Below, piece by piece: positions 4,691-61,700 of a stretch of 64,000 nt of DNA. The DNA is from Psammoneis japonica (Eukaryota): assembly GCA_008632985.1 (NCBI GenBank), contig QPGO01000069.1:248001-312000 (forward strand), in the 5' to 3' direction. Below the pieces are notes generated by a model. The model had not been told where the DNA came from and did no database searches. It was given only the letters and a program-made list of their open reading frames with translations. Position 1 is the first letter of the stretch, and every line of letters starts with the position of its first letter. The position numbers and the translations under genes were made by a program.

Positions 4691-4822
4691 ACCAGTTGGT
4701 ACTTAGCTAAAACCTGGCATGGCATGCACTCTCAAGCTGTTCGTCGCATTTTGTTCTGTGTTTTTTACACTTTCTTATCACATGTATCTATAAATGTGGG
4801 TTTCATGAATGGTGAAATATGG

Positions 4823-9214: not shown

Positions 9215-9282
<68 letters not shown>
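9215..9282. repeat. (TG)n microsatellite abutting the gap
   Basis: Perfect tg repeat. Confidence 0.97.
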
Positions 9283-9285
<3 letters not shown>

Positions 9286-9899
9286 AGGGCTTTCCACCCA
9301 GAAAAACTTTGTCAAGACTCTCGGCAAGCACTGGCCTGCCGGGGAAATTCTGAATTTTCCAAAGCATGGACCCAAAGAAGTGGGCTGCAAAGTCAAACCA
9401 ATGGGCAGCCCAAGTTGCCTGTGTGCTGCAGTCAAAAACAAGCTTGTTCACTTGAAGGAAACAGATGTGACATTTTTGCCAGCTGTGCCAAGATCTGGCG
9501 GCTTTGTGGTGCACAGCTGTTCTGCAGACAGGCACTCTCTTTGCTTCCTTGCCCAGAGCTGAGTCAGCATGATTTTCAACACCATTTGCAACCCAGCAGT
9601 CAACAAGCACTCTTGTTTGGGAGGGTTGTTGTTGACAAAGGGCATCAGCCCCACTGCCAATTTCCTCTGGGGCATGTGCAGCTCCTCCTGGTTTGGATCA
9701 TTCAATGCATTTTCAACAGTGCACAGAGAGATTGGAAGCGATGCTCAGCAACTTGGTGTCTCCAACAAATGCTGGCAATTGTGACAAGAAGAAGCTTGCT
9801 CTCTTCTCACCAGATGCTCAAGCTCTGCAGGCAGACAGAGCAGAGTGAAAAGTGTGCTGCCTTGTTCAAGATCTGAGACAGAGGTGGGTGCTTCTTGCA

Positions 9900-15245: not shown

Positions 15246-15372
15246 GGCAAAAGCCACTTGTCAGTTGTGACAGTGGCTCCGTCAAATGGCGCATGTTTTG
15301 CAACACATGAGCAAAAGCCACTTGTCAGTTGTGACAGCGGCTCTGTCAAACAATGCATGTCAGCAGCACATG
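15242..15372. repeat. Tandem duplication, ~64-bp unit
   Basis: catg(g/a)gcaaaagccacttgtcagttgtgacag occurs at 15242 and 15306. Confidence 0.85.
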
Positions 15373-38211: not shown

Positions 38212-39524
38212 TTTTCCCACAGAGAGAAGCCGCTAAAGAATGGAGCAAGTAATAGAGAATGGATTTATCACCAAGGACTGTTTTCTCTACAATGTCAAGT
38301 GACGAGCAATACAGGAGACGCCGATTGCGGCCATCATCTTGTGTGTCATGTTTCATGCGATGTTCGTCGCGATCGCGATAATGCAATGTAGGATACTGCA
38401 ACACGTGGAAGGCAGACAGACAGACAGACAGAGAGGGCGGGTTCGTTGCGTGCGAAGCACGCACGCCATCCCATGCCCGCCACAGCACACGCAAGCCAAT
38501 GGAGATTGATTACATTGAGCATGTTGTGTGTCAGCAAGCTCTCTTCAACAGCATGGCACATTACATGGATGGGATGCAGTGGCTGCGATGAGGAAATCAG
38601 AAGAAGATCCAATGGTGCCTGGTGCCCAGCACCGCTGCCACAAATGACACACAAAACTGACCTTGACAGATGCGCCTCTGCAGCAGCAAGAGAGTGTGGT
38701 GAAGCACCCAGTGCAAGAAAATTTCTGCAGGCCACGTCGTGTGCTCAAACTCACATGCTGCTCCAATCCAGCATTAATTTTGAGAATTGAACCACCTTGC
38801 AGCTGAAACTGTGACACTTTTGCTCCTGATCATGGCTGACAAGGAGCCAGCACGAAAAAATGCAAAACAGCGGAGGATTTTCTGAAGACAGTGCAGCATC
38901 CTTGCCAAGACACAAGCACTGTGCTGGGTGCCTGCTCATTACAGACAAATTGGTCCCATCCTGGTTTGAACAATTTGTTGGAATTGGTTTTCCTGAGTCT
39001 TTCTTTGGCTGCTCTTCAAACAGCACAATGGTTGGCACAAAGTTCCCCCCACCTTGGCAGCACTCAGTGCCCCAGCTTTTCTTGCTTGGACACAACAGAT
39101 TTGGCATTGTTCAATGAAAAAAATGGCAATTTTGTTGTGCTGGGAGAAGATTCAGCCACACACAAAAATTGATCATGCAAGCAGTGCCAGAGATCTGCCA
39201 GCTTCTTCTTTGTGGTCTGGGGTGGTTGCTGCAGGCACAAAAGGCGGGCGCTGCGGCTTGTGCCTGCCTGAGTTTTTTGTGCACTCATTTTTTTTTTGCA
39301 TTCACTTTGTTGTCTACATTGTCACCTGACAACTGCAACATTTCCAACGCAGCTCAGCTTCACCTCCATTTCTCCAGCACTTTCCAGCAAACCTCCAATG
39401 CATGTTTCATGTGCATTGGAACCCACACCACGACTCAATGCATTTTTAATTCTCTTGTTTTGCCAATTGGTCTCAAATTTTCTGGAACTTTCAACAGCCG
39501 ATGACATCAGCTGCACTCACAACC

Positions 39525-39685
39525 ATTGAAAATCTGTTTTTGATTTTTCAGCTCAGAAAAACAGCCTGCTGCACTGATGAGCGAAAGCAACAAAAGCTCA
39601 CATCATTGAGCTTTGCATGCCAGGCAACTCATTTGACAGGATTGCTGTCATGCCAAGAGCTGATTGTGCATTGGACAACCCCAAC
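39525..39685 (+). repeat. Dispersed repeat, second copy at ~48835-48990
   Basis: Shared blocks ttgaaaatc..., gcactgatgagc.aaag, aaagctcacatcat, ccaggcaactc, ggattgctgt, ctgattgt.cattg.acaaccc. Confidence 0.75.
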
Positions 39686-39824
39686 AGAGTTCATGTTTGA
39701 CATCCCATTTTGTTTGTTTGACTTTGCTCATGACACCCAAAACTCCACATTGTGCTGCCCATTTGGCTCATTCTGCACCGGAGTGAAAATGTCACTCAAG
39801 AAGGTGTTTGTTGCCACCCAATTG

Positions 39825-40046
39825 GCTGTCTTTGCTTTGAAGTGAAAATGACAATGTGTTGTGGGGTTTGTCATTAACCGCCAGCTACTGACACAAAAAC
39901 TTTCTCAGAAAATCCCACAAACTTTCAGCCAACAAGCTGTCTTTGCTTTGAAGTGAAAATGACAATGTGTTGTGGGGTTTGCCATCAACCGCCAGCCACT
40001 GACACAAAAACTTTCTCAGAAAATCTCACAAACTTTCAGCCAACAA
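39825..40046. repeat. Tandem duplication, 111-bp unit x2
   Basis: gctgtctttgctttgaagtgaaaatgacaatgtgttgtggggtttg starts at 39825 and 39936. Confidence 0.92.
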
Positions 40047-40877
40047 CCAACCAAAAGCAAAATGAGATGGGCACATGACTCTTTTTGGACAGCAAGGCTG
40101 CAAATCATGGTGCATGGCAGAAGTCAAGAATCAGCTGCACAATTGAGATGGCTGTGCTGCAATTTGTTTGTTGTGGCGCCAATGGATTGTGCAAATTTAG
40201 TTTGGGAGCCTTTGCTTGATTTCTGTTGAAATGAAAGAGAAAAAGTTGAGCAGTGGAAAGTTGTTGGCCCATTCTCAATGTCTTTTTTGGTCAAAAAGAT
40301 CTCACAACAACTGCTCCATTGGATCTTCTCCATGTTCCGTGAAGTCTGTGTGTTGTTGTTTTTGTGCTGCAAGTCATTGTCTTGGGGTGCCCTTTGCTTT
40401 GTCTTTGTGCAATGGTCTTCAAAATTTTTTGTTTCACCCACATCTTGTTGCTGGTCAATTTTTGACATCTTTTGGTCAAAAACTCTCTGGTGCAACAGTT
40501 GTGCCATTGGATCCTTCACAACAAAGCACAGCCTGTCTTGTTCTTGCTCTTGCAAAGGGAGGCTGCGCCCAAGATGCACTGTGCTCCATCTTTCTGTCAT
40601 GCTGGTCATCCACATTTTTGTTTCACCCACATTTTTTAGTGTCTTAGCAACACCATCAAATTTGCAACAGCCGTGCACCATTGAATCCTTTGCAACAAGT
40701 GCAGTCTGTCTTTTTGTTGCTGTTGCAAATCAAGGCATCATGTCAAACACCTTCGTGCGCATTGGAAATTGGAACCCACACCACGACTCAACGCGTTTTT
40801 ACTCTTTTTTTTTCTTGGAACTTCACAGGAACTTTCAACAGCCGATGACGCCAGCTGCACTCACAATCCTTTGTTGG

Positions 40878-41861
40878 ATGGATGCGAACACCAACAAAAA
40901 CACAAAAGAAGCAACGGCACCAACCATGACAAGAACGTCACAAAATCAACAAGGACAACAGCAACAACTGCTAGTGGATGAAGCCGAGGCACGGGCGTTT
41001 TATCGAGAGTTTTTGACGCTCTCTTCCAAGCCACGACTCGTCATGGTCATTGCGCGAAAAAAGTACGACGACACCAACACACTTTCCACCTCCACCCAAA
41101 TCTTGGAACGAACCATTCTCCGCTTTGACAAGAAACACAGTGAAGACGATTTTATTCGTTTTATTCGCCGAGTAGGTCTTCTCGTCCAGGCCGACTTTTA
41201 CCGCGATCGTCGAGACGATAGTGTTCCGATTGCCCTCGAGTGGGTCGTGATGTATGTCACTGCCTTTCCATTGGACGAAGAAGATGCGACCGACGCCTTT
41301 ATCCAAACCATCATGAAGCGTCGACGCAACTTTCGACGGGCCATCGCCAATGAAAAGAATAAGGATCAGTTGCCCGTCTTGTCGGACATTGCCAGCATAC
41401 TAACGACGTGTCTCCACAATAGCAAGTGCCCCGAATGCCGCCGCCTGTTGAAATTGGACGTCGACACAAAGGATCCTGCACTACTAGAGGATTTTTATCA
41501 AGTATTGCAAGGCTTTGCAGTTGTGGTGGCTATGGAAACGCGGGGTGGATATCACGTGGTAATTGAACGAAACCGAGATTGTCGGCCCTTGTACGAGTTT
41601 GTCAAAGCCGCCCAGGAAGGTGTCCCTCACAAAGAGCATTGGATTACGCTGGAAGATAATGATGGACCTATGATAGCTATTCCTGGAACAAATCAGGGTG
41701 GATTTATGGTTCGAATCGCCACCGAGCAATGGAGGCAGGCGCTGGGAACAGCTCTCGTCTCCCAAGAAGGATGTCCTCTTAGAAGAAGGGACAGATCTAC
41801 GTGTAGGCACTTTTTGGGTAATGCCAAGCATAAGCAAAGCTGTCACGACCATTACTGTTAA
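40878..41861 (+). CDS. Intronless orphan with archaeo-eukaryotic primase (AEP)-like motifs; start codon uncertain (40878 or 40926)
   Basis: Normal Tyr/TA usage from ~40970 onward. Motifs IARKKY, LKLDVDTKD (hhhDhD), METRGGYHVV (T.xGxH), IPGTNQGGF. Confidence 0.6.
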   Translation: MDANTNKNTKEATAPTMTRTSQNQQGQQQQLLVDEAEARAFYREFLTLSSKPRLVMVIARKKYDDTNTLSTSTQILERTILRFDKKHSEDDFIRFIRRVGLLVQADFYRDRRDDSVPIALEWVVMYVTAFPLDEEDATDAFIQTIMKRRRNFRRAIANEKNKDQLPVLSDIASILTTCLHNSKCPECRRLLKLDVDTKDPALLEDFYQVLQGFAVVVAMETRGGYHVVIERNRDCRPLYEFVKAAQEGVPHKEHWITLEDNDGPMIAIPGTNQGGFMVRIATEQWRQALGTALVSQEGCPLRRRDRSTCRHFLGNAKHKQSCHDHYC

Positions 41862-42215
41862 TTAAGAGACCTACAATGACGTCTACGCTATGTACAGTAA
41901 AAAGGAAAGACTACGAGTCGAAGACGACCTTGTGATGCAGCTCCCTAACCTACCCGGATGTGGACTCTCAAAACCTTTCGCAAGTGGATCTTTCCAAATC
42001 TGGCAATGAACTTTAGTTTCTTCCCGATGGGAGGGGTTCGCATGCCACAAAACTCCTTTCAAGGAACGAACGAACGAAGGAACGCACGCACGCAAGATGG
42101 TCAAGACGGTGATTTCGGTCGATCCTAAAGTGGAGCCGTGGAAGCAAAAGAAGACTCCGCTCCCACAATCGCGGGCACCCGGATGTTCCTCCCGTCGCGA
42201 CGGTGAACTCAGAAC

Positions 42216-42439
42216 CGAGTAAATCTAGCTGCCGAAGGCTCAGCCACTCACAGTCTTAGTACGATAGCGCGAATACAACCAATAAGATGCTTCTAGGCCT
42301 GTTACAACTACAACAGATGCAACAAGTGAAAACCATTCTGTGGTCATCGGCATTTTGGTCCGCACACCAGTCACAGTTTCTCCACAGCACCTCCTGCTAG
42401 AGCACACTAGACAGTCCCTGATACATCGGATTTCACTCG
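42216..42439 (-). repeat. 3' LTR (224 bp) of the copia element; PPT GAGGGGA on the minus strand at 42441-42447
   Basis: cgagtaaatctagctgccg...gatttcactcg; direct repeat of 48489-48711. Confidence 0.92.
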
Positions 42440-42624
42440 GTCCCCTCGAAATGTGCCTGACTCGTAAGGCACAATTCGAACCAATGCTGCATCAGCAGTC
42501 TAACTCAAACATCTTGACTCATCAATCGACGTAAAAACCCTTGCCAGGGAAAAGCCGCCAATCCTCTGTGCATGGTGCAAACCCTCACTGGGGAAGAAAC
42601 TCACCACCGCTTCACGTGTCCATC

Positions 42625-45600
42625 TCAATGCGTGAACTTGTCTAACAGAAAATTCCGTCTGATGGACGACATGACCTTCGTGAACAGATTGCCAAGGTTT
42701 GTCTCTGTTCCCTCCTTTGCAATCCCAACAGTCCCCGCAGCAACAGCTTCGCGGTTGCGGTGACACGCAATGGAGTGATGCTTCTTCTTGAGTGTAGACT
42801 CAGGAATGGAGCAATTCTTGTAGACGGCCTCATTGTCACAGAAGACATTTGTTGGCCCTTCAATCGGCACTCCAAACATTCGAAGCTTGCATTGCAGGCC
42901 CTCCATGAGCTCAATGGCATTCTTGAGTGCAACAATCTCAGCCCCAAATGTGCTGGCCTCCACGGTGTTCTGATGCTTCGAGTGCCACACGATGGGTGCC
43001 CGGTTGACAAACATCAAGACACCTGCATGGCTGCGACGATCGGCAACATTTCCGGCATGGTCAGCATCCACAAAACAATGTGTCGATGCCACATCACCTC
43101 GAGCTGGTGGTGCATTTGTCGGAATGGCTTCTCTTGCATCTCGGTGGAAGTCGCGCCAGTCGCACTTCACGAATCGCGATTCATCGATCTTGGGATGAGC
43201 CGGATCAAATGCTGCTTGGCACTTTGGAACCTGTTTGGGGTGTGCAAAGATGTGCAACACCTGTTCCAGATGACCAATGCAAGGAAGAGCGAGGTGAGCA
43301 GACATTGACGAAACCTCCAAATGGGTGTCCACTCTGCCGAGTTCCACAGCCCAAACCAGTGCGCCAATCAGCTCTTGACAGCAGTGAAGTCCTTCAGCGT
43401 CCAACTCGCCAGTGGTGTCTAACTCGGGTTTGCATCCACTGCTCAATGGGGTTGTTGCCTTGCCAGGCAGATGTTTCCCCTCCTTGCCAAGCCTGTCCTC
43501 TACGTTTTGGACAGCGGACTTGCAGTGCTTCTCTGCAGACATTGCCCAACAGGCAGTCCCATTGGCCAAAGTCATCTTGGAAAGCGCAGCACCGAGATGA
43601 GTTTCCGGCTCGGCTGCCTTGTCACCCTTGAGCTTGAACTTGGACCTGATGCCATCCATCGTCTTCATGGGTTCGTGACTGATCGACAGCACGTCGTCCA
43701 CACAAACTAAAATGCATTCGTAGCACTCGAATCCATCGGGTTTCACCGCAGGTCTCATCCATGCATCCGGATCGGCCTTGCTTGGTTTGCACCCTAGATC
43801 ATAAAGCGTCTCCACTGGGAATGCCCTGAACACTGCTCCGGAGCTCTTCAATCCGTGTGGAGCCCTGACCACAATCATGATGCAACCTTCATCCTGCCAA
43901 ACTCGGAACCGGCTCTGGTCCAAATCTTCTCCCTGCAAGGGGCAGCAAGGCAGGCGTTCTGGATGTCACGTGCGAAGACTTGCAAGTCATTGAGCACAGC
44001 AAGCATCAGTGCAATCCTCACCAAATCTCAAGAGACGACAGAGGAGCAAGTGATGTGTGCGGGGGTTTCAGCAGTGTGGCCTCCAGCCACCATGCGAGCT
44101 TTGCGGCGGAAGTTTTCTCCCAACTTGATGTCAAAAATCATGTGACACTTCACTTCCTGGAAACCAGGCACCATGTCCTTAAGCTCCCCTTCATGCTTGT
44201 CAAAAGCAACCCGTGCATTCTTCATCTCCATGCAAATGGCGTCCCACCACAGGGTGTTGCCATTTGCGCGATCGATCTGGATCGCCTCCTCGACACTCTT
44301 TGGGATCCGCATGCCAAATTTGTGTGTTCGTAGCCAACACTTCGACTTGACCTTCGCAATGGAACACTTGCTGGTTTTCATGACATGAGGAACCCACCAA
44401 GCAAACGCTGGCTCACTCGAGATCTTGCGCTGAATGGCAAACTCGGCAACTTGGACTGGGAAGCTCTCCTTCGCAATCTTCAGGTCGATCCAAGTCGCAC
44501 TGCCATCCTTCCATTGGAACAAAAGTTCCCATCCTTTGGCAGTCTTGCGCCTCTTCCGAACGCCTTGCTCGGTCTCAAAGAACTCAGATTCTGGAACGTC
44601 CCCGTTGGTGCGGCAATCAACGATCTCATCAAATGAGACATGCCGGTTTCCGTCCTCGTCGATCTGAGCAAACACATTCATGGCGATGGAGTTAGCAGAG
44701 AGCGCAGCATGGTGCCCATCAGGGCACTCTACCTCATGCATCCTTGCATCAAGGATGGGATTGTCATTGGCTGTTCCTGTCGGAATGCCATTGGCATCTC
44801 TCAACCTCTTCGTGACATGAGCAAACTCAGGTCCATCATCATCTTGTGGAAGCGCAACTTCCATGTTAATGTGTCCCCAGTCCGCCGCCTCCGGTGAGGC
44901 TTCCTCGTTTTTCTTGTCGTCATCGTCATTTGCTGCCTCCTCTGAGGACATGACACAATCCCACTCATCGAGGAATTCATCATCGTATCCAAGGCAGTCC
45001 TTCCAGTCTTTGGGACTGATCTGCGATCCTCGTCGTCGGGGAAGTCTTGCTCCTTCAACCGTCGCTTGATCTCCTCGTCAAAATTGTCAAACTTTGCCTT
45101 TTTCTCTTGAGCAGCGGCTTCCAAATTGGTGACTTGTTGAACAGAAGTTCTGAAGTGACACTGCCTGTCTGTGTCAAGACGTGGTGCGACATGAGACTCC
45201 CTGTCCTGTGAGATGCACCAAGCCACCTGCCGAGCTTCTCGTCCCCTAAACCGGCATTCTCCCTGTGCCAGACCCAATCATAAAATCCAAAGTCAAGGTG
45301 CTCCAAGATGTCCACGGTCTCTCCGAGAACGTTCTCCAGTGGCACTCCAGCATCCAAATGATGTGCTCTGAGGAACGTGTGAGACATGGTCTCACATGTC
45401 CATGTAAATCCGCAGTCCCACAGTGCCACGGTGCTTGCTTCTTGACCATGATGCGGAACCACTTACGTCTGACCTCGCGCACAACCCCTTCTGCAGGATT
45501 CTGGTTGTGTCGATTGGGTTCGATGACACGACAATCTATGCCCTCCTTGCGCACGGTCTTCATGAACTCCGTGCCAGGTTTCGTTTGCTCCTTAGATCCA

Positions 45601-45990
45601 TCCATCAGGAGTTTCTCTGGCACGCCAAATTCCTGGCAAAACATCTTGAGAGCCTTGCCAGCCTTGCTCTTTTTGTCCATGGGATAAATCGCAGCGAAGC
45701 ATTGCTTGTTTGTGAAGATCTGAGCATGTCGATTGCCCTCCAACAAAACCACCTTGCCATCAACCATGTTGGTTGCCCATTCACCCCGTAACCTGGGCTT
45801 CGTGAACATCCGATCGGCCCGATGGCATCGACCCATTGGCATCAACGCTGACCTGATGAGCTTTTGCGTGGTCTTCTTGAGCATGCTGGCTGCTTGCTTG
45901 AGTCCTGTGCACCATCGTTCACTTGAGTCAGCAGCCGACACATCACTGTGTCTCTCCTCAGACATGAATGTCTTCAGGAGTGCCAAGTCT
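42625..45990 (-). pseudogene. Copia pol (integrase-RT-RNase H), frameshifted and hypermutated
   Basis: ORF fragments 45246-45986, 45055-45462, 44028-44951 and 42625-43938 carry copia motifs. The catalytic YVDD reads CVDD. Confidence 0.92.
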
Positions 45991-46767
45991 TCAGGTCCTT
46001 CGCCGATCGTTTCCGTGGCGGAGATCTAGGCTGTTGGCTCTGATTCCACATTGACGGCAGCTGTGAGCCTTGATTGGACTTGATCGACTCCATGAATGAA
46101 TTGCTCATCACAGCAGTCCCCGGATTGAGGGTCACTGTGGGCAGGATCAGCTTTGAACTCGTGTGTCAGATTGGTGTGGATCGTCGCAATTGACCGAACT
46201 AGCTCCATTTCCTCCTCCGCAGATCGTCGAGTTCCAACAGATTTGAACTTGACGGTCTGTGGATCCCAAGGTTGTTGGGAGGTCATCTGGATCTTGGGGC
46301 ATTCGTGCAGTTCCTGCTCTGCAGGAGCACGAGTTGCCGCAACAACATTGGTCCCCACAGCTTCAAGTGGCATCATGAAAGACTTGTCCTCCGTAAGGAT
46401 GTGCAGTGGTGAATCGGAGCAGGGGTTGTCCTGAACCTTAACACCAAAGTGCCACAGCTAGTTTGGGTTAACCAGCGAGTGCTCCATGGACTCCGGCATC
46501 CACAAGCCCTCGTGGAAGACCAGAACAAAAGTTGCTCCCGATGTCGGTGACGTCCACGCCGTGGCTGCCAAGACAATTGGGGCACTCTTGATGGACTCGC
46601 ATCCCTCGTTAAAAGGAGACACGCCTTGTTGAGGTAACGACCTCACAGATGCGTTTGTCGCAGGCACGTGGACACTGCTCCTTTGATTGACACGGCTGTC
46701 CCCCGCCCCATTGTGGCAACCACAACAAGAAGTTTATGATGCAACAAAGCAGGGTCCAGCTTGGCAG

Positions 46768-48198
46768 TCATTTCTGCTTTCCTCGGCGCTTTTCGCTGCG
46801 ACCACCGAATGCGTCTCCGGCATTGTCTCCGTCTCTGCCACCAACCCTTGATTCATCATCACCAGAATCGGCGCTGGCATCAGTGTTCAGGGTGGAGATT
46901 TTGCGGTTCGCTTCTTTAAGCTGCGACAACAGCTTCCGATTCTTCTTCTTGAGTGACTTGACGGATGCAGCACGGCGTTTGGTTGGTTTAGGTTGTTTGG
47001 CAATGCCCAGACGCACGCGCTCGTCGACAACCTTCTGTTTGTCCCCCTTGCTCAACTGGTGCCAATTTTTGTGGCACCCAGTGCCAATGGATCCATCCTC
47101 GTCACAAATGGCACCACCCTCTTTTCCTCCTCCAGAGGCAACTGCGGCAATCGCACGACAATGCGCAATCGTCTCTGGAAGGGTGGCGACTTTGGCAGCA
47201 AGATGATTGGCCGCCGTGGTGAACGTGATGCCTCCTCCAAACTCATTCTGTGCCTTCAAGGTCTCAACTGCCGCCTGCAGTGATTGGTGCTGCGTCTTCT
47301 CAAAAAGGATCCGTAATTTCTGGGCCTCCGTTTTCGGTTCGTCGTTTTCCTCAAAAATGTTGAACATTTCTTGGAGCTTGTTTGCCAACAAATGATTCAA
47401 ACAGCATGGCACGCTCACTCTTGCAATGGAGGGCATTCTCCATGCGCTCAGCTTCAGAGATGCGGCGGGAGGTGTTCCCTTCTCCCTGGTGATGGTCACA
47501 CAACGCCCTAAAGTCAACTCGTCCATTCTGTTGTTCTTGTGGTCTTTCAACCATTGCTCACTGGGTGTGCCCGTGGCAAGGGACTCGATGAGCAAATGAA
47601 CCGTACGAGTGTCAGCCTCGAAAGCTGGGCCTTGGAGGGGTGCACATGCAGTGCACTTCTGGACAAAAGTGTTGTGGCCTTGAGGTTTGGGTGCATCGTT
47701 TTGACGAATGCAATGCACTGGCAGCACGCCAGAGACTCCTGGCACAATGCCAAGCATGTTCATCAAACCAGTGCTCCACTTGACCCAATCCTTTTCGCTC
47801 TCCAACATCCCGGGTGATGCCTCTTCACTGAGAGAGTCAGCAGTGGTCTTGGTCTGGGAATGGATCTCGGCACGACTGAGTGCCATCTGGAGAGCAGCAC
47901 GGAAAGTTGCCTGATCAAGCCCATCCAGAGTGGGGTTCTCGCTCACACGACCAAAGTCCTGCACCCAATGGATGAGAGCTTTGAGTCGATGACTGCGGGC
48001 CAAACCAAAATGAATGCGCCCTTCAGCAACCGTCCTCCCAGCGCATGATGACGCAAGAGAATCGATGTCCTCTTCCTTGAGGTCTTCTAAATCGTCAAAA
48101 GACGCAAAGTCCGCCATGAGCGAGACTCGTTGAGCTGGATCAACAAATCCGATCCATTCGAGTGCTGTCTCGATGGGATCCGGAGGAGCAGCCGCCAT
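46768..48198 (-). pseudogene. Copia gag-like ORF (CoDi type), degenerate
   Basis: IHFGLARSHRLKALIHWVQDF, GVSG.P, APLQGPAFEAD resemble diatom copia gag. The 476-aa ORF contains no Tyr. Confidence 0.8.
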
Positions 48199-48474
48199 GG
48201 TGGCACCTGTGCCAGCAGGAAAACAGAGTCATGTGAGAGATCATAATTTAAAAAGGATGTCTCAGTCTGTGTTGACGACAACACATGGCCGTTGGAAGCA
48301 TGGAGACTGGCCATGTCTCCTCACTGCTCGTGCACCCACTGATGCCAGGCGATGACAATCATCATGCACCCTTTGATCGACCGGCGTTCGTCATCACAAC
48401 CCTGCCACATTGGTGCGATCATCTCTTCACAGTTGTTCAATGCTTTTCGTCAAACTAAACCTGAGTCAACGACT

Positions 48475-48485
48475 TGGCTCTGACA
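48475..48485 (-). other. Primer-binding site resembling the tRNA-iMet complement (TGTCAGAGCCA versus canonical TATCAGAGCCA)
   Basis: Lies 3 nt inside the 5' LTR and matches the TGGTATCAGAGC family except for a TA>TG change and the missing TGG. Confidence 0.6.
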
Positions 48486-48488
48486 AAG

Positions 48489-48711
48489 CGAGTAAATCTA
48501 GCTGCCGAACAGGCTCAGCCACTCACAGTCTTAGTGCGACAGTGCAAATGCAACCAACAAGATGCTTCCAGGCCTGTTGCAACTGCAACAGATGCAACAA
48601 GTGAAAACCATTCTGTGGTCATCGGCATTTTGGTCCGCACACCAGTCACAGTTTCTCCACAGCACCTCCCAGAGCACACTGGACAGTCCCTGACACATCG
48701 GATTTCACTCG
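48489..48711 (-). repeat. 5' LTR (223 bp) of the copia element
   Basis: Direct repeat of 42216-42439. Confidence 0.92.
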
Positions 48712-50479
48712 GAACAAAGGAGACGCTTTTCGGGTGGAGTGCGTGGACTGGACTGGTGGCCAAATCAAGAACAACGACAGCTCGGACAATGTCAAAAACA
48801 TCAATTTGAGCCAGGTCCACTGCCTTTCAGGTCCGATTGAAAATCCATTTTCGATTTTTTTTCTTGGAAAAAACAGACTGTGGCACTGATGAGCAAAAGT
48901 GAAAGCTCACATCATCAAGCTTTGCCCAGGCAACTCTTTCAATGGGATTGCTGTTGCACTGAGGACTGATTGTACATTGAACAACCCTGAAAACAGTGCA
49001 TGGAATTTTGATTGTGACAACAGCCAGTGCGCCCACTCAAATTGTGCCCACAAGTGGTGACCGAACTTCAGCAGCAGCACATTCTGTGTCGTTCGCACAT
49101 GTGCAAGGGCAACGGCAGAGACAGCACCTGCTTGCTGGGGCATCTGAACAGTGCAAGCTAGACAACAATTGTCAATGTGCTGCAACAAGATGCAGCTTCC
49201 AGCTTTCCAGAACATCATTGCTTGAGTCACATGCCACTCGCATGATTGCCAAGTCAGGACTTGCACAAAGAGCCATGAGCTGAGCAAATCAGCCTTTCCC
49301 ATCTCAGCGGATGACCGCTTCATCCCCAAGCATGCACAAATCAATCCAAAGCTTGGCTTCAGCAGCAATCTCAAGGATGATGCTAAAGGAAAAGAGCTTG
49401 CTGCTCAAATGGATGAGTTGGTTGACACCTTTCAACAGAATGCAGCCAACCTCATGCATCAAGCAGCTGTGTGTGAATTGGAGGTTGCGAGCCAGCTGAG
49501 ATTGGAAAAATTTGTCAACGCAAGTGTCACACTCTTCATGTTTTGCACATGCCATGTGATTGAACATGAAAAGAAAGGCACTGTGCCAACCTCACCCCAC
49601 GATGCCTTGGTGGCATGATTTTCACACCAAGTTTCTGGACAGACTTGGTGTCAACTGTTGCACTGACCACCTTGGCACTGCTGACAACAAGGTGATCCAA
49701 GAAACAGCTCATCAGCTGGAACCTCAACCAAGCACTGCCAGAAAACTCCCTGCAGGGCAGTGACCAAGTCTCCCAGGACTCTCAAAGCTCCTCCCAGGAA
49801 ACTCACCTTGACACTCAACCTGACAATGACACAGAAGCCCATTTGCACCAAAACAGTGAGAAGCAGACAGCTGCAGCAATCACCCAAGAAATGGACAAAT
49901 TCTTTCAAGATGTGTTGTTGACCTCCAAGCATCCTTCCATGCAAAAGAGCAGCAGAACTCTGCTTGTGTCAAGACAGCTGCCAGGTGGAAGAAGCACAAA
50001 ATGCTGAAAGTGGCAGATGCTGCCACCGCCACCCTTGAAGATGAGCCTGTGGTGCCATCCCCTGCCATGGAACAGGTGGCACACAAGGCTCTGGAGAAAG
50101 CAGGGCCAAAGCACTTCAAGCAACAGCTGAAAAAAAATGAACAGAAAAGACTCCAAGAGTTGCCAGGAAATCCAAAAACTGGTGATGTTCACACAAAAGA
50201 CATTGCAACCAATGCTGCACAAGAAAAAGGACAAGGGAAATTTAAACAACCTCCCAAAGAAGCAAAAGCATGCCCCTGCAAATCAGAAAAGAAGAGGAGC
50301 ACATCAAGGAGGACAGCGCAACGATGGGCAAAGAGGAACAAAGAACACAAAAAAGCAATGCAGGTGTGGCACCACCACAAAACAGCTTTGCATCCCATCT
50401 TGATGGCCATTCAAGAAACAGCCAACTGCTGCAGACAAGCGCACGGCTTTGCATTGGACTCAGAAAAGCCACCAAAGGA

Positions 50480-50920
50480 GATCACCACCACTGCACTGGG
50501 CACTGTGAATTCCACCAAATGTTTTGCCTGCCCAAAGAACCTGGCCTTCCACAACCCATGCACAGGGCTGCAACCACCCCCAGGCCTTGGTTCATTGCCA
50601 GGTTTTGGCCATGAGTTCTGCATTGAGTCAGCAAAACCCTTCTCTCACAACAGACAATGCACGCAGCAATTGTGACAGTCCATGCACCTGAAACACTTCA
50701 TCAACAACTCGGACTTAGACCTTGGTGAAGACTGCAATCCCAACCTCTGTGTCCCATCCAGCTTCAACCCTCCTCCAATCGAGACTGGATCCATTGAACT
50801 TTGCATGATGAACTTTGTAAATGCAGCAGACTGTGGCAGCCAACAAGCCTCCAAGAGAAGATCTCACTTCAATCTCTCCCCAAGACAATGTCAAGCCCTC
50901 CGCAATCTGCAAAAGGATCT
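50480..50920 (+). mobile_element. Truncated Penelope-like retroelement fragment (region N-terminal to the RT), degenerate
   Basis: PKNLAFHN.C..LQPPPGLGSL.G.G..FCIE, CNPNLCVPSSFNPPP (cf. YNPKLYIxSxWxPP) and NLSPRQCQALRNL. The match ends before the RT core. Confidence 0.55.
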
Positions 50921-51375
50921 GAATGCGATGAGGGATGAGGCGAGTGCTCTCAAAATGATGAAGTGCCGCATCGTACAGCATTCACCGCCCACAACACACC
51001 ACCAAAGCAATGGGACCAGAAAATGAGGTCTCGGGGGAGAAAGTTGAATCAATCGTGTTAGCGTAAAATCTACTGGCGCTCGGTATTCAGTTTCCACGAT
51101 CGAAACGCATCAACCATCGTTCTTAAATCCATGTCACAAGAGACAAATTTTTACGCCAATCAGAATCCTCAATTGCCACACTCAAAACAAAAAGAGGCAT
51201 CATATTTTATCGTGGTCACCGACGACAATTTCATTTTTATTGATGTTGAACTACAACCTTTAAATGTTTCGAACATTTAATGACAAGTATGTGGTTTTGG
51301 CTGTGTTTCATGTGTTCCAAATTCTTGTTTTTCGTCGTTTTCCCCACAACATTCTTTTTGAGACTACGAGTCATC

Positions 51376-54744: not shown

Positions 54745-55690
54745 AGTTCACAAGGACACCATGCGCGAAGTGAAGCAAGAAGTAGCCGATCGAAAAGCTA
54801 TAGCGCACGGGGAGACCCTTAAAACGATCCTCAGGACCCCACCTGACCTCCAGGCCAGAGCTGTCAAGCGCAGCACCAAGACTGGCGCGTGGCTTTCAGC
54901 ACACCCTTCGACACTGAATGGCGCGGAACTCTCGTGCCAAGAGTTCCATGACGCGCTCTTCCTGCGGCACAGCCACACTCCACCCAACCTCCCGCAGCAC
55001 TGCAATGGATGTGGATGCAAGTTTACGATGAACCACGCCCTTCAGTGCAAGAAGGGCAGCCCAGTCATCTCACAACACGATGAAGTGTCCGTGACAACCT
55101 GGGTGGCCCAGTGGGCAAGGCTTGCAAACCTTCCTGTGCACGCGACAAACCCCTGATCAACCCCACCGGTTGCAGCACAGGAAGCTCAAGCACCCCCACC
55201 AGTTCTCCAGGAAACACTGACTCCAACAAGTCTGAGGAGATGGCAATCGCGGGGACCTTCTCTGCATGCAATTTTGGGACAGAAGGACAGACATGGTGAT
55301 GGACATTGCATCCCTGCCCTGACCGGACGCAAAGTCACACCCATCCAAAACACCAGAAGAAGTTCTGGCAAGCCACAAATGTGAAAAAAAGTGTGAGTGC
55401 CTCAAGCCCTGTCTTGAGCAGCACCATCATTTTGCGCCCTTCGCAGTGTCATGTGACGGACTTTTCAGCAAGGAAGCCAAGGCAATGCTCTGCAAGATGG
55501 CATCGATGCCATCAGACAAATGGCAAAAGCCACACTCTGAAGCATGCGGCCACATCAATGCAAGAATGAGCATTGCCACAGTCCGGGCAACCCACTGTTG
55601 CCTCAGGGGATCCCATGTTCCCGCCTCTCAGATCAGCTCCAGACGACCCCAGTGGGAAGATGGCGCCGGTCTGTCCCCACACAGACACCA
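54745..55690 (+). mobile_element. 3' fragment of an RLE-type (CRE-like) non-LTR retrotransposon, degenerate
   Basis: TGAWLS..PSTLNG.ELS.QEF.DAL.LR, C.GCG.KF...HAL.CKKG zinc knuckle, RGDL-like endonuclease region, DGL..KEAK, ARMSIA.VRATH.CLRGS. Confidence 0.85.
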
Positions 55691-55799
55691 AAGGACCCCA
55701 ATCCAATCAACCCCCACCCTTCCTGACAGCACACCAACTGACTGTCCACCAACACCACCAATGTCATGCCCAGAAGATGACAAAAACCTGCCACCACAC

Positions 55800-58700
55800 T
55801 GAATGCGGCGCCACAATCAACTCAAATGTCGCGTGCACAGCCTGCGATTTGCGTGCAACAACTGCCCCTCACTCACATGACTGCATTGATGCTGCATTTT
55901 CTGTTGTCATGACAAGGAAGTGAGCCATGTTGCATCACTTTTTCTGCTCATGGAAGAGGGCAGATGGATTTGAAATGCTTGGAAGATTCAAAAAGCAGCA
56001 CAAGGAATCAACACCAAGTTTGTGCAGAAAGAGAGCAAGTCAACCCAAGTGTTCTTTGCAATCTGGTTGTCCCCAACTTCATTGCCTTGGGAACTTTTTT
56101 GCTTTCACTGCAGCTGACAAAAATCAGTTGTTTGGGTGCTGGTGCATCAGCACAGCAGAAACTCTGACAGGGGGCTGGCCCACACACTCCCAGCACACCG
56201 GTGCTGTTGATGCAGTTTGGGAGGGGATGTCCAGGACAGGCCAGAACTGGTGTGCCATCATCAGATGAAGCCTGCCCAAAACAACTGGTTGTTGCTCTTG
56301 CAACTTGCACACAGCATTCCAGGCAGCTGGGTTGGCACTGTCCTTCAATGCAGGGTTGCAGCATGACAGCCATCTGCACAGATGGTGAGCAGAGTTTGTC
56401 AAGTGGTCTTCCACTTGACTGGTGAGTGTGATTGTTCTTTGCTTGCATTCATCTCTTCATTTGCAGATCACTCAAATTTGGTCTTTCACATCCTGTCAAC
56501 ATGCCTGTTGTCTCATTTGTTGATTGTCATGCCCATGCATGGCTGTGCTGCATTTGTCCCAAAGATCTTGCCACTTCACCCAAACACACTGGTCCATCCT
56601 TTGTGTGTGGTGACTGCAAAGCTGAGGCCACAGGCCGTGTCATCAAAAATGACACTGCACCTGCAAGCTGAGGTGTTGCCAACTGACTTTTTCTTGAGAG
56701 TCTGCAAACTTGGGCTGCATGAGAAGATGATGCCAGCACAAGTGCAGAATTTCATCACCCAAACACACCAGTCCATGGCAAATGCACCCCAGCTGCGCTC
56801 CTTTGTGTGTGGAGACTGCAGCAAAGCTGAGGCCACAGGCCAAGTCATTGGAAATGACACTGCACATGAAAGCTGAGGTGTCTCCAACTAACTTTTTTTT
56901 AGAGTCTGCAACCTTCTTGAGCTTCATGAGGAGAGGAGATGCTGGCATGAACGCAGAATTTCATCACATGGTTGCTGCTCTCCTGGGTGGCTGGGTGGCC
57001 AACAGAAGAGCAAGCTCTGAGTGGCAGCAGCATGTTGCACAGATCATCTCACACAACTCTTCTTGTGGTGGAGACCTTGGAGAGAGACAAACAGCACCAG
57101 CTGGAGTTGTGCATGCACTGGACCATGCCTGCCCCATCTGTTTGAAGGAGAACAGCAGAGTGCACAACAAGGCATGGGAGGGCAGTTTGAGGTGACAACA
57201 ACAATGCCATGGGCTGGCACAGCAAGGCTGTCAAAATGGCGATCATGATGACAAAGCACAGACCAGCCATTGGGTCTGCCACCACTGTGATGTTGTGGAA
57301 ACACCCTCTGCATCAGAAGAATCAGGATGAGCCATGAGGATTGTGCACTTTGTGCTGGCTGCTCTGCTTCTTGTGCATGCCACTCTTTTCATTTTGCCCT
57401 TGTTTGTCATCAGAGGTGGAGACAATTTAGCTGGGGCTCACTCAAATCATGTGGGTCAAATCTGATGTTTCCACACAGGTTTGACCTGAATTGTGGCCTG
57501 CTGGGTCATGGTTCATTGCAGTTTGGGTGAGCCACACTGGTGTGCCAAATTTTTCATGCAGCTGTGCCTGTCATTTCCTGTTGTCACACCACACAAATGA
57601 CAACCACACTCATGACATTGATGCATTGTTGCATTGCAGCAAACTTTCATTTCATGTTTTTGATGCGTGCTCCCATTTTTTAATGCATTTTCTCTGCCAG
57701 TGTTCAACCATCCAAATGTTGTTTCACATGGTGAATGTCTTTGCCAAAACAAATGTCATTGCGCTGCTGTCATTGATGCATCTGCAAACCACATTTCCCC
57801 TGTTAATTGATGTCATCATCATCCTCCATTGGCACTGCATTGTCCATCACTTGCTTCTTTTCTGTCAACACATTCCCAGAATTGCTTGGACCACAGTTCA
57901 CTGCATTGCTCTGCATCCTTGCTCATCCTCTTTGTGTGTGTCTCCTTTTCCAATTCTTGGCACCTGTCAGTCCTTGTTTGTTCCAACCTTGGCCACTCTT
58001 TTTTGCCTTTTGTCCTTTTCCAGTGCTGTGCTGCACTTCACTGTTGTGCGAGCCTCTGTTCCTGCAGCTTTTCCTTTGCTTTCCCATGCACATGCACCCA
58101 CTTTTTCCAGATGTTCTCCAACATCAGCAGACCAAATGCCTTGTCACTTCCCCATGCCAACTTGTTCAAGCAACACCTTGATTGGAGAGCCAATGTTTCT
58201 GCAATGTCTTCCCAATGACAATGGGCAGGAAGTGGCAGGTGCAGCAGCTGTGTGCCTCCATGGCATTCCTTCCCTCCAGCATGTCCTCCAAGGATGGCAT
58301 GTTTTCATTGTCATGATTCAGCCTGCCTGTTTGTCCACAAAACACATCAACGTGACCTGGGTCAGTGTTTGTTGTCTGTGCTGTTTGCAGTTTCCCCTGC
58401 AGCAATGCTTGCTGAAGAATTCCTTCTTGTTCTCCACAGGCATTGTTCCTCTTTCTTGTTGCTTGTCTTCTCACCTTGTCCTTTGACATGTTCCATGTCT
58501 GCGTCCTGTTTCTGTCCAGCATGTTTGGCTGGACAAAACAGTCTCAACCTCCCTTTCATTGCTGATGGTGTCTTGTGGCCTTGTTGTTCAGAAACTTGCG
58601 CCAATGGAAAAGCACATTCTTGTAGCCAGCAGCTCTCCATGTCCCTGTCATTCATTTTGTCATTGCACCCTTTTTTCTTTCACTTGCCACTCATTGTGTC

Positions 58701-61700
58701 TTCTCCTTCATGTTAAGAGCAGATGCAGACAGAGTCACATTCATCACGACTGACCCCCCGTTGGTTTCCTGCACCATCATCAACACGGGTGCCTCCATCT
58801 CTGTCTCTTGCACTCCCCCTGTCATGCGTGTTTGCTTTGCAGTCCATTGCATGCTGCTGTCAGTGAGCACAATGCAAGCTCTGTTGGCACTTTACACTGT
58901 TGCTTGCATCTTCTCTAACAGGGCTTTGGAGTGGCTGGTTTTGTTGTCTGACAGTTCCTGTGCACAGGGGCATGGTGCAGTTGTGTGTTTTGGTGGTTTC
59001 TGGAGAAGCAAGACTTTTGTTCTGGGATGCACTGCAATCACAGTGCCAGGTGCTGCAATTCTGCACATGTGCACCTGGCAGCCATGTGCTGGATCCTGCT
59101 GTCTTCTGCACCCCTTCTGCAATTTAAAATTCTGGCTAGCATTGTGGCTGGTGGCCTGTTTTTTTTTCAAAACCAAGCTCTGATGCACAGTTGATTGAAG
59201 ATTCAAACACCATGTCTGTCTTTCCATCACACGTCAGGTCACTGCACCCTTTTTTCATGCACAAATCTGTGGTTTGTTTGAGTCACGGTGAGGTGGCTGC
59301 TCCCAATTCATTCAGCTGGACTGCTGCTTTGATCCAGGGCATTTGACTTGCTTCATCACCCCATCTGGCAGTCTGGGGAAACTGACCCCTCTGTTGGAGT
59401 GATCTGAGTGTCAATGTCATGCTCACTTGTTGCTTTGCAGCTGACATCCTGCAAACCAGAAGTGTGCAAGAAGGTTGTCAGAGCAGTCAAGCATGCCATT
59501 AAATGAGTGTGATGTGCCTTGCACACAATCCACAAAACACTCCACATGAGTGTGACAAAGCCTCTCTGTCACAGCTGGACTGTGCTGGCCTGGGATCAGG
59601 CCCACAATCATCCAACCATTGACCATCTCTCAAGTCAAATCAAAGAACCCATTCTGTGGCACAACCACTCACACACTGGCTTTGCAAGGTTGGTGTCTTG
59701 GTGGAAGAATGATGCCAACTTCATGGCTTTGCACACAATGCCATTAGCATCCATTGCAAGTCCATGTCAATTTGGCTCAACATTGGCAACATGACCACGC
59801 AGCTCACCTGCATGAGGGGACCGCACACCCCATGCTTGTTCATGCCATGTGCAGGTGATTGCAGCCTTGACTGTTTGCACAAGTCCATGGTGTCCTTCTT
59901 GTCTGGGGCCAACTGCAACATGTTGCCCCTCAATCAAGTGGTGCACTCATCCTTCATGTGCTCTTTGCTGTCTTTGTGTTGTCCATGCAACACACAACAA
60001 ACTTTGCCTTGCCACAAGGTTTGGTCTCCATGATGATTTCCCGAAATTCCTTGGCTTTGTGTGCTCGCCAAGCACACTTGCCAATCTCATGTGGCAGACT
60101 GTTGTCACTGTGGATGGAGAAGTGCAGTGGTGGAGATGTGCTCATGCACTTGAGGACTCCACAGTCCCTTGGTTGCTTGAACCCAGACTGCAAGTGCTTC
60201 AAAAGTGCCAGTCTGGAAAGCCAACACATGATTGGGTTGAGGTTGTCAAGAATTGCTGGGGTGGGGAATGCCACATTGTGGCCATGATGGTCCTTTGCCT
60301 CATGATGGAGATTGTGGGGGACAAGCTGGAGGAGCCACATGCCATGGTCTGTCAATGCAGTGGACTGCTGAAAAGTGATTCCAACAAGTTTGAGTCTTCC
60401 ATTGTGGAGTGCCAGCATGCAAAGACATGCATGTTGGGTGGAGACCCTGTTTTTCACCTTGTCAATCTTGACTGAATGACATTGAAAGTGTTGGTGTTCA
60501 AGGACATTTTCCATCCTTGAAGAAGGAACCATGGTGGGATGTTGTCACCAGAGAGAAGATGGGAGAGCCAGATTTTCCATTGTTGCAGGATGATCCACCA
60601 ACATTGTGCAAGGGTGTGAAGCCAAGATTGCACACATGGAGGCCACAAGAAACCCCAATCACCAAAAAACTCACCATGTCACAAGACTGGGTGTGTGCCA
60701 TTCTTTCACATGACAAATGGAGAAAAGAGTTCATGGAGACAACAGTGCAGCCAAACTGATCAACATGATGAGTGGTCAATGGAAAGCAACCAAATGGCGC
60801 CAGCAAAACCCAGCTGTCTTGTTCCAACAAGTTGGGATGACTTGGCCTTTTGAAAACAGCACTGCTGTCAAAAACTCACTTTTCAAACCATTGGTGCCAG
60901 AGGTGCAGACAAACTGGAATGTTGTTCTGGCATGGATCCAGAAGCTTGTTGAGGAAACAATTGTTGAAGTTGCTGACATGGCCATTGCCACAACATTCAG
61001 GGGAACAAATTCTTTTCAGTTCCGCCATCAAGATGTGATCTCCATTGCAAGGCATCACATGATGAAGGCCACCTTTCACTTCAGTCACCTTTCCTTCACA
61101 GCCTGCATGCATTGAAATGACAAGCAAACATGACCTCTTTGCAATGAAAAGATTCTGACTGATGTGTGTCATGTCAAAGAATTCATTGTCTGAGTGCTTG
61201 TTTTTCACAATGCAGTGGGATTTGCAAATGCAGTTTTCCCTGTCATGGTGTGCAACTGCTTCCCCACTTCAATTGGCAAAGGCAGCACACAGGGTTTTCA
61301 TGATGATCTCCACTGTTTCTTCCACAATGCTGTTTTGCCTTGGCTCAGAGGGAAGCATCAGAAACATCCACTCCTTCATTGCCTTGCTGGTTTTGGTGAT
61401 GTTGGCCAGGTTGATGAAACAAAAGGGAATGAATCAAATGGTTGCCTTCAACTCCATCACAGATTGGTCACACCAAGATCTTTGAAGTTCAGAATGAGAG
61501 GGGTCCTCGCAGAACATGCAGCCAGTGTGGCACTCTCCCATTTGAGAGTGGCAGGAATGCCCCAGTTCCTTGATGCCTTGCACTGACAGAACCACACCAG
61601 CCATTGAGAAACACTGTTCACACCAGATCTTTCAGCTTGAGAGGAAAAATTGATGACAATGCAGATGAAATCATGGCGAAAGTTTCCTCTTCTCTTTTTG

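Follow-up and report, generated by a model that had tools for sequence, protein, structure and literature searches.

One-sided loss of TpA between the LTRs of a diatom copia element points to regional hypermutation after insertion

The two LTRs of a single copia insertion in a diatom differ almost exclusively by the loss of TpA, always in the same copy, and the element has probably undergone, after its insertion, a regional hypermutation of TpA into TpG or CpA that spared its gene-side end. The data show the direction of the change, its specificity for TpA, its incidence on both strands, its occurrence in blocks with sharp edges at genes and its preference for certain flanking bases; that such a process operates at all is highly probable. 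Positions refer to the window, i.e. the whole 64-kb stretch of DNA that was analysed.

Results

The element lies on the minus strand and consists of a 3' LTR of 224 bp (42216..42439, the left LTR), an internal region with gag-pol remnants in about seven frame pieces (42440..48488) and a 5' LTR of 223 bp (48489..48711, the right LTR). Both LTRs end in CGAGT...ACTCG, and GAAC was read directly on the two sides (42212..42215 and 48712..48715) as a target-site duplication, in agreement with the single insertion proposed in an earlier note on this DNA. Inside the left LTR there is a minus-strand purine run. For the RT/RNase H part (42628-43965), 1589 relatives were retrieved at E <= 1e-3, and PF07727 is carried by most of the 120 relatives listed. 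With its LTR pair, target-site duplication, purine tract and an RT/RNase H akin to that of RVT_2 elements, the element is, judged from its sequence, a diatom Ty1/copia retrotransposon in a degraded state, which we take to be CoDi-like. A Pfam search of its own ORF pieces returned no family, and an intact relative scored just 29.3 bits. No integrase was identified in the element, a search of PDB sequences using the RT piece gave no meaningful match, and a second copy of the family was found in the 64-kb window neither by BLAST nor after transitions were collapsed. The exact 36-base LTR word had no match in the metagenome collection.

Pairwise alignment of the LTRs revealed identity at 209 of 221 aligned positions. 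Ten of the 12 substitutions oppose TA to TG or CA and two oppose CG to TG or CA (left/right positions 42268/48543 and 42271/48546), the CG being on the left; among the 177 aligned positions outside TA and CG dinucleotides there is no substitution. At all ten TA-type sites TA is present in the left LTR, and the products in the right LTR are evenly divided between TG (42261/48536, 42275/48550, 42304/48579, 42310/48585 and 42409/48681) and CA (42265/48540, 42283/48558, 42294/48569, 42398/48670 and 42422/48694). Two indels complete the differences: 2 bases (48509-48510) are missing from the left LTR and 3 bases (42394-42396) from the right one. The earlier note had described this pattern correctly, with its one-way TA>TG/CA changes, two CG losses, two small indels and no further substitutions, except that it counted nine TA sites where there are ten; the additional one (42398) is adjacent to the 3-base indel.

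The left LTR carries 13 TA (TpA o/e 0.88) and 9 CG, and 3 TA and 7 CG remain in the right LTR. The share of TA-type changes among the LTR substitutions corresponds to a binomial p of 5e-13, and their identical direction at 10 of 10 sites to p = 0.002. A comparison set of 22 LTR-like pairs was drawn from 80 environmental elements related to this one; 13 of the pairs are identical end overlaps contributing no substitutions. In this set 10 of 88 substitutions were of the TA type and their directions were mixed (Fisher p = 6e-7 for the TA-type excess in the LTR pair). TA changed at least ~86 times faster than the non-TA/CG sites of the same LTRs (95% bound) and, counted per dinucleotide, about six times faster than CG (1.47 vs 0.25).

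The loss of TA extends far beyond the element. Five blocks, amounting to ~33 kb or about half of the window, exhibit a TpA o/e of 0.03-0.11 compared to 0.53-0.68 in the genic parts. Inside them CA+TG reach 1.54-1.86 times the expectation, with TG and CA about equally frequent (e.g. 1047 vs 1081), the TpA/ApT ratio is 0.01-0.2, CpG o/e is 0.14-0.58 against ~1.0 outside, and the G+C content is about that of the normal parts. The block edges are sharp, being resolved within 250-bp bins. Four blocks have lost both TA and CG: 2701..4700 (TpA o/e 0.09, CpG 0.35), 6501..16800 (0.05 and 0.34), 38401..41100 (0.08 and 0.36), which lies to the left of a gene, and 54801..64000 (0.03 and 0.14), which continues past the window end. 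The TA-erased block at 42501..51000 (0.11 and 0.58) contains the bulk of the element together with older repeat DNA to its right, and beyond 48750 CpG is nearly gone too. A 1.4-kb island of normal composition (41101..42500; TpA o/e 0.65, CpG 1.05) holds the gene and the left LTR. This gene is an uninterrupted ORF on the plus strand (40845..41861) encoding a conserved diatom protein with 30 homologues and no assigned function; the homologues cover ~72-83% of the ORF, and the true start may be further in. Pfam searches of the long ORFs of the other depleted blocks found no families.

The edge of the depleted block was located inside the element, at 42533..42628, from retained TA and Tyr columns: the last run of kept TA is at 42465, 42501 and 42532, and codon 42628-42630 is the first at which His replaces a conserved Tyr. 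For the internal region overall, TpA o/e is 0.13 and CpG o/e 0.70. The element is thus split between island and block, TA being kept beside an intact gene and lost in repeat DNA, as had been noticed from the sequence. The proposal that the TA loss happened in the chromosome after integration and depended on position is supported by this one LTR pair and the block map in one 64-kb window. As the spared LTR is not under selection, regional targeting, and not purifying selection, explains its kept TA.

Differences between repeat pairs inside the blocks are mainly TG/CA doublets (9, 7, 5, 3 and 3); the copies of the repeat common to 39525-39695 and 48836-49002 differ by 9 of them. Such doublets were discarded as proof of ancestral TA, as an ancestral CG gives the same doublets.

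The polarity of the change was established from the element's pol, in which Cys or His is found at 16 of 21 columns where relatives conserve Tyr, and Tyr at 0 of 20 conserved Cys/His columns (Fisher p = 2e-7). Tyr>Cys (n=10) and Tyr>His (n=6) show no significant strand bias, so that A and T cannot be told apart as the target on this basis. TpA o/e in the 80 relatives ranges from 0.29 to 1.05 with a median of 0.68, and the depleted state is the abnormal one. A contig from another insertion of the family, with a different flank (run X2, record 9), equals the left LTR over 42216-42266 without any other letter and therefore has TA at 42260/61 and 42265/66. Polarisation with other family members, which the earlier note had advised, thus yielded TA at the two LTR sites covered, the other eight of the ten not being covered; at the site of the 2-base LTR indel, family contigs have TA or TG and the right LTR has CA. 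Combined, the Tyr replacements, the other insertion and the TA-poor blocks bear out the view that TA is ancestral.

In total, 2318 contigs match the element; they come from one sample and are possibly the assembly's own data, and hence do not independently confirm the base calls. They differ from the window copy at 789 places, 40 of which were listed; none of these is inside the LTR substitutions and they amount to 36 events. Among the 36 events listed, the window has CA and the family TA in one, and the window has TA and the family TG in two, so that a family majority keeping TA at the lost sites is not evident, and the TA loss in the interior could be partly inherited. The biggest class among the events listed (n=13) is CpG lost in the window copy. 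These window-private losses, the two CG sites of the LTRs and the CpG-poor blocks together carry the signature of CpG decay. Three estimates of TA survival agree with each other, i.e. 3/13 (23%) in the right LTR, 0.13/0.68 or 19% in the interior relative to the relatives' median, and 5/21 at the Tyr columns, and their agreement fits loss in place.

The same footprint was detected outside the window. In the environmental contig L074, TpA o/e of the interior is 0.04-0.2 with normal CpG, Cys or His occupies 16 of 23 Tyr positions, and one end is spared. Comparison with the same-family copy L070 gave 32 TA>TG/CA changes and 1 reverse change, without CpG loss. In this pair, RTAY sites were mostly lost (12 lost, 2 kept) whereas YTAR sites were mostly kept (2 lost, 12 kept; p = 4e-4), and this shows a flanking preference in which RTAY is most prone and YTAR least. 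The preference is also seen in the surviving TA of the window, where it could partly reflect newly made TA. The database proteins P0038 (14/19) and P0061 (7/17) have the same Tyr pattern, P0038 reading HVDD where the window element reads CVDD.

Discussion

We propose that a copia-type retrotransposon inserted at the rim of a silenced, repeat-rich chromosome block of a diatom, and that a host process acting on whole chromosomal blocks would since have turned TpA into TpG or CpA, an A:T>G:C transition at a palindromic dinucleotide that may arise on either strand. The whole element would have been affected except its last ~320-410 bp (the left LTR and ~100-190 bp of interior), presumably lying within a protected zone around the neighbouring gene. 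In the same blocks a slower change of CpG to TpG or CpA may represent ordinary methylated-CpG decay. The process would modify bases of chromosomal DNA enzymatically, be directed by chromatin state and serve as genome defence. Adenine deamination at 5'-TA is the likeliest candidate for its chemistry, by analogy with a published case, although one held without much conviction.

Thymine rather than adenine may be the modified base in the same regional process, for instance after oxidation to 5-hydroxymethyluracil or a similar base whose mispairing with G leads to T>C. TpA being palindromic, A>G on one strand is T>C on the other; a symmetric dinucleotide target recalls the maintenance-type logic of modification at CpG, and the RTAY preference is equally a 5'-purine preference for the T. 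Thymine hypermodification favours TpA in some protists. We nevertheless regard this route as rather unlikely, the sole published proposal, in the available text of the preprint, being adenine deamination (bioRxiv 10.64898/2026.01.13.699255). Opposite polarity, in which a RIP-like C>T change at CpA/TpG made the TA of the left LTR, would match the classical RIP signature of CA/TG>TA, and some diatoms have DNMT4 enzymes related to fungal RID according to the accessible part of PMC9998398. It is hardly tenable in view of the one-way Tyr replacements in pol, the TA at both LTR sites covered by the other insertion, the 32 to 1 ratio in the L070/L074 pair and blocks that are TA-poor, not TA-rich.

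An improbable case is that TA>TG/CA is real but that gene conversion or recombination with an unmutated family copy has restored the left end, or that the LTRs stem from different insertions, which would make the asymmetry uninformative on position. The family is indeed multicopy, as judged from the number of matching contigs, and the spared tract resembles a conversion tract in extending ~100-190 bp beyond the LTR. Yet GAAC is found on both sides, the LTRs do not differ outside TA and CG even though copies of the family differ at hundreds of places, the spared tract runs unbroken into the gene island of normal composition, and L074 likewise has one spared end. Changes before integration, by ADAR-like RNA editing or reverse-transcriptase errors, find some backing in the A>G after U, an ADAR-like context (available text of bioRxiv 10.64898/2026.01.13.699255), and in an interior depletion that could be partly inherited. 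The earlier note had argued against them, and with reason: LTRs copied from one cDNA differ here, TG and CA arise 5:5 and hence on both strands, and the depletion runs on into flanks outside the element and ends inside it. Moreover, the 3'-pyrimidine preference is unlike that of ADAR, which prefers a 3' G. Such an origin is very unlikely, and equally so is an artefact in which modified heterochromatin bases were misread in sequencing or assembly. The possible common source of contigs and assembly would allow the latter, but a contig of depth 66.7 matches 41900-42236 without difference, 459 of the 2318 matching contigs are at least 99% alike, unrelated environmental contigs and database proteins have the same signature, and so have Illumina data of mutation-accumulation lines of Bigelowiella natans, as reported in the accessible text (bioRxiv 10.64898/2026.01.13.699255).

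Regional hypermutation of TpA in the chromosome has a close parallel in this chlorarachniophyte. According to the available text of Mettrop et al. (bioRxiv 10.64898/2026.01.13.699255), mutation-accumulation lines acquire de novo TpA>TpG/CpA mutations only in silent integrated viral regions, adenine deamination at 5'-TA is the proposed mechanism, and reverse transcriptase and DDE domains are over-represented among TpA-depleted CDS. Both cases share changes that are almost only A>G/T>C, at TpA only and with TG and CA products, a footprint of TpA depletion with CpA+TpG gain, and sharp regional limits. By analogy, the diatom footprint appears to be that of the TpA-specific A:T>G:C hypermutation reported in 2026 for B. 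natans. The host differs (Stramenopiles here, Rhizaria there), as does the target: an LTR retrotransposon and old repeat blocks here, integrated viral DNA there. The silent regions of B. natans are of foreign origin. In the diatom window one target is copia, and the other blocks are without family match. Depletion is deeper here (o/e 0.03-0.11 vs 0.45 in the B. natans NCLDV region), and in the old blocks CpG is depleted as well, a dinucleotide that the available B. natans text does not mention. The diatom case offers the LTR pair, an edge located to ~100 bp and the RTAY preference, as a sequence footprint alone; B. natans offers real-time mutation data.

Fungal RIP likewise wrecks transposons by transitions at one dinucleotide and leaves blocks of distinct composition adjoining normal genes. 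However, RIP makes TA from CA/TG and lowers G+C, whereas the diatom process destroys TA, as seen in the TpA/ApT ratio, with G+C unchanged. RIP also mutates the whole duplicated unit; here the repeated unit has a spared end, which argues against homology recognition of the whole repeat. Deaminase editing of retroelements (G>A by APOBEC, A>G by ADAR) has reportedly been seen in LTR pairs and copies, and it too produces clustered transitions of a single type in copies of retrotransposons. In contrast to the two-stranded change at TpA found here, it works on a single strand and no later than reverse transcription, with LTRs not differing by position. Decay of methylated CpG matches the CG>TG/CA changes of the depleted blocks, where the right LTR has lost 2 of 9 CG and CpG o/e falls as low as 0.14, but leaves the TA loss unexplained, and L074 has TA loss without CpG loss.

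So far a single 2026 preprint, on one rhizarian alga, has been the basis for TpA-directed hypermutation, and a literature search covering few subscription journals turned up no account of this signature from a diatom. That the footprint occurs in a diatom, as well as in diatom-type elements from the environment, suggests that a genome defence of this kind is widespread among ecologically dominant algae. To the published case the LTR pair adds proof of change in the chromosome after integration and a block edge located to ~100 bp beside a gene, and the flanking-base preference is one that any candidate enzyme must reproduce. Tentatively, and with some doubt, diatoms and chlorarachniophytes might share an old chromatin-guided DNA editing defence, in which an enzyme recognising 5'-R-T-A-Y-3' would convert TpA, at its A (or T), on either strand of silenced DNA, independently of cytosine methylation. 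Kept out of the few hundred bases around active genes, it would erase ~80% of the TA of a new transposon before ordinary substitutions build up and would represent a second, RIP-like defence of opposite direction, widespread in the SAR supergroup.

The footprint also has practical consequences. Blocks without TAA and TAG stops give rise to long false ORFs, the Tyr>Cys/His changes conceal transposon proteins from profile searches, and dates from LTR divergence will be far off when TA and CG sites are included.

The LTRs of one insertion differ by directional loss of TA

The element is a degraded Ty1/copia retrotransposon on the minus strand, with its 3' LTR on the left (42216-42439, 224 bp, TpA observed/expected ratio [o/e] of 0.88) and its 5' LTR on the right (48489-48711, 223 bp, TpA o/e of 0.24). 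GAAC is present on either side of it (42212-42215 and 48712-48715), and a purine run is found on the minus strand inside the left LTR. Upon pairwise alignment, the two LTRs were identical at 209 of 221 aligned positions and each of the 12 substitutions was a transition within a TA or CG dinucleotide. TA in the left LTR was replaced by TG (5) or CA (5) in the right LTR at 10 sites, CG by TG or CA at 2 sites, and no substitution was detected at the 177 aligned positions outside TA and CG; the alignment also contained one 2-base and one 3-base indel. Both the share of TA>TG/CA among the substitutions (10/12, p = 5e-13) and the single direction of the TA changes (10/10, p = 0.002) are far from what chance would generate. 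As a control, we used 22 LTR-like pairs from 80 related environmental elements; 13 of them are identical end overlaps that contribute no substitutions, and the remaining 9 pairs carried 88 substitutions, only 10 of the TA type and in mixed directions (Fisher p = 6e-7 for the TA-type share). The earlier note had described LTRs differing almost only by one-way TA>TG/CA changes, with 9 TA losses, 2 CG losses, two small indels and no further substitution; the alignment reproduced all of these and added a tenth TA site that had been missed (42398, beside the 3-base indel).

The three TA surviving in the right LTR (48493, 48499 and 48532) are the three closest to its interior-facing end, and all 10 further TA beyond 48532 are gone. 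The indels (42235/42236 and 42394-42398) each lie on or adjoin a TA site: the dinucleotide missing from the left LTR at 42235/42236 occurs in other copies as TA, TG or CA, and the 3-base indel directly adjoins the TA>CA site at 42398. They may be by-products of the TA-erasing process.

TA as the ancestral state

The element interior (TpA o/e 0.13, CpG o/e 0.70) is broken into about 7 minus-strand frame pieces. For the piece at 42628-43965, 1589 relatives were found at E <= 1e-3; of the 120 listed, the majority contain PF07727 (copia-type RT), and those with a name belong to the diatom Fragilaria crotonensis. The element's own frame pieces gave no match to Pfam, for which an intact relative scored just 29.3 bits. 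A tblastn alignment of the 120 relatives against the element was filtered for columns covered by 20 or more sequences with a consensus of 70% or higher. At 21 conserved Tyr columns the element carried Cys (10), His (6), Phe (3), Asp (1) or Tyr (1), whereas Tyr was found at none of the conserved Cys (9) and His (11) columns (p = 2e-7). Further changes in the element match TA>CA/TG, namely Leu>Pro (codon CCA), Val>Ala (codon GCA) and Ile>Met, or CG>TG/CA, namely Arg>Cys (3 columns) and a single column each of Arg>His, Arg>Gln and Arg>stop. Among the 80 environmental relatives, TpA o/e ranged from 0.29 to 1.05 (median 0.68) and none was as low as the element interior. TA survival estimated from the right LTR (3/13, 23%), from the interior (0.13/0.68 = 19%) and from Tyr columns not changed to Cys or His (5/21) agrees and fits loss in place.

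The earlier note had proposed polarising the changes with other family members. A contig from sequencing run X2, which has a different flank and represents another insertion of the family, matches the left LTR over 42216-42266 without a difference and therefore carries TA at 2 of the 10 LTR sites. At the 2-base indel site, family contigs carry TA or TG and the right LTR carries CA. Family contigs vary from the window copy at 789 places, of which the 40 listed correspond to 36 events: 13 CpG losses seen in the window copy alone, 5 CpG retained in the window and lost in the family, 4 TG/CA doublets, 2 TA retained and 1 TA lost in the window, and 11 others. The doublets are ambiguous because an ancestral CG yields the same outcome. 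Polarisation thus gave TA at the two LTR sites covered, but the 36 events do not show a family majority of TA where the window copy lost it, and the interior may have inherited part of its TA loss. At 43895, 45151 and 45424, which lie at pol frame breaks, the window reads T|G where other family contigs carry an extra C; the family sequence is therefore TCG, and the C of the CpG was lost through a 1-base deletion in 3 of 3 cases.

TA erasure is confined to blocks adjoining genes

Five sharply bounded blocks (2701-4700, 6501-16800, 38401-41100, 42501-51000 and 54801-64000) cover together about 33 kb of the 64-kb window. They differ from the genic remainder in TpA o/e (0.03-0.11 versus 0.53-0.68), CpG o/e (0.14-0.58 versus about 1.0) and CA+TG relative to expectation (1.54-1.86 versus 1.06-1.23 times), with a similar G+C content; TG and CA are about equally frequent inside the blocks. 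The element straddles a block edge. Its left LTR lies within a 1.4-kb island of normal composition (41101-42500) that also contains an uninterrupted ORF (40845-41861) with 30 homologues (best E = 9e-90, 56% identity), one of them from the diatom Amphora. On one side of the edge, TA is last retained as a run at 42465, 42501 and 42532; on the other, the Tyr codon at 42628-42630 is the first to be destroyed. This places the edge about 100-190 bp inside the element, and the older DNA to the right of the element is depleted in both TpA and CpG. This map bears out the claim that the gene-side LTR kept TA and the repeat-side copy lost it: erasure is confined to chromosomal blocks with edges adjoining genes.

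The window's genes are long and almost without introns, and the best named matches of the flanking ABC-transporter ORF are all from diatoms: Thalassiosira sp. (63%), Stephanodiscus (57%) and Cylindrotheca (50%). This identifies the host as a diatom that lacks close representation in the protein database and distinguishes it from Bigelowiella. Also within DNA of normal composition are an ORF encoding a SET domain (293-1816, E = 4e-9) and one of 782 codons that weakly matches DUF6345 (51578-53923). Long false ORFs occur in the blocks because, where TA is missing, the stop codons TAA and TAG are missing too; in the frame 40230-41861 (543 codons), the first ~200 codons (40230-40844) are false and run into the real gene.

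The same signature in other elements

Cys or His at the Tyr columns was found in none of 107 of the 120 relatives, and at 14/19 and 7/17 columns in the database proteins P0038 and P0061, respectively. P0038 reads HVDD at the position of CVDD in the element; the same Tyr was therefore resolved the other way. One of the 80 environmental loci, L074, has an interior TpA o/e of 0.04-0.2 with normal CpG (0.74-1.06), and Cys or His at 16/23 Tyr positions. Compared to L070, a copy of the same family with 91.5% identity, it shows TA>TG/CA at 32 sites and the reverse at 1, and no CpG asymmetry. TA erasure can thus proceed without CpG loss. The spared stretch of L074 is its first ~750 bp; the spared ends of L074 and of the window element are on opposite sides of the element. 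Another environmental contig, L017, gives a partial signal (Cys or His at 7/24 Tyr positions) with a normal overall TpA.

Between L074 and L070, RTAY was lost at 12 sites and kept at 2, and YTAR was lost at 2 and kept at 12 (p = 4e-4). Surviving TA in the window blocks follows the same trend, with TTAA (5.2x) and CTAA/TTAG (4.5x) enriched in share relative to normal DNA and ATAC (0.10x) and ATAT (0.11x) depleted. Erasure is hence favoured where a pyrimidine follows the A, equivalent to a purine preceding the T.

Nature of the TA-erasing process

Within the LTRs, TA erasure proceeded at least ~86 times faster than ordinary substitution, and TA was lost ~6 times faster than CpG (1.47 versus 0.25 events per dinucleotide). 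Erasure is TpA-specific, occurs on both strands and took place after integration: since the changes affect both strands and depend on position, editing prior to integration is excluded for the LTR pair, in keeping with the earlier rejection of ADAR editing and RT error, and erasure stops at the gene-side edge, sparing the left LTR. This LTR belongs to a repeated unit and is free of selection, which argues for regional targeting and against both whole-repeat homology recognition and purifying selection. The observation of the earlier note is confirmed and its interpretation of position-dependent mutation in the chromosome is supported. We infer that the DNA would be modified enzymatically, with chromatin state as a guide. 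Adenine deamination by an ADAT2-like enzyme has been proposed for Bigelowiella natans (bioRxiv 10.64898/2026.01.13.699255); because TpA is palindromic, modification of the thymine at TpA stands on an equal footing with it.

The signature in the window is the same as that of B. natans, for which the 2026 preprint, in its accessible text, reports de novo A>G/T>C mutations at TpA only, in two silent integrated viral regions, and an enrichment of RT and DDE domains among TpA-depleted CDS; diatoms, LTRs and CpG are not mentioned in that text (bioRxiv 10.64898/2026.01.13.699255). In contrast, fungal RIP acts in the direction opposite to the TA loss seen here, and the accessible text of a survey of diatom DNA methyltransferases brings up RIP via DNMT4 only (PMC9998398). 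A literature search found no account of a TA-erasing signature in diatoms. A recently described kind of hypermutation is now found in a new and important lineage, and the diatom case adds mechanistic constraints: a mapped edge, a sequence context and independence from CpG.

Other repeats in the depleted blocks

Other repeat pairs in the blocks differ mostly by TG-versus-CA doublets (9, 7, 5, 3 and 3), and their identity rises when transitions are collapsed, for instance from 76% to 92.5% between 39525-39695 and 48836-49002. An inverted repeat of ~169 bp (9883-10051 and 15097-15262; 87% identity, 94% with transitions collapsed), the arms of which differ by 7 TG/CA doublets, encloses 5.4 kb of depleted block, possibly as the terminal inverted repeats of an old element. 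Runs of N (6133-6642, 510 bases; 8995-9214, 220 bases) lie at or within a depleted block. Tandem repeats are also present in the blocks (7476-8011, 181 bp x 3; 39818-40046, 111 bp x 2), with TG/CA doublets and TA/CA sites again among the differences between their copies.
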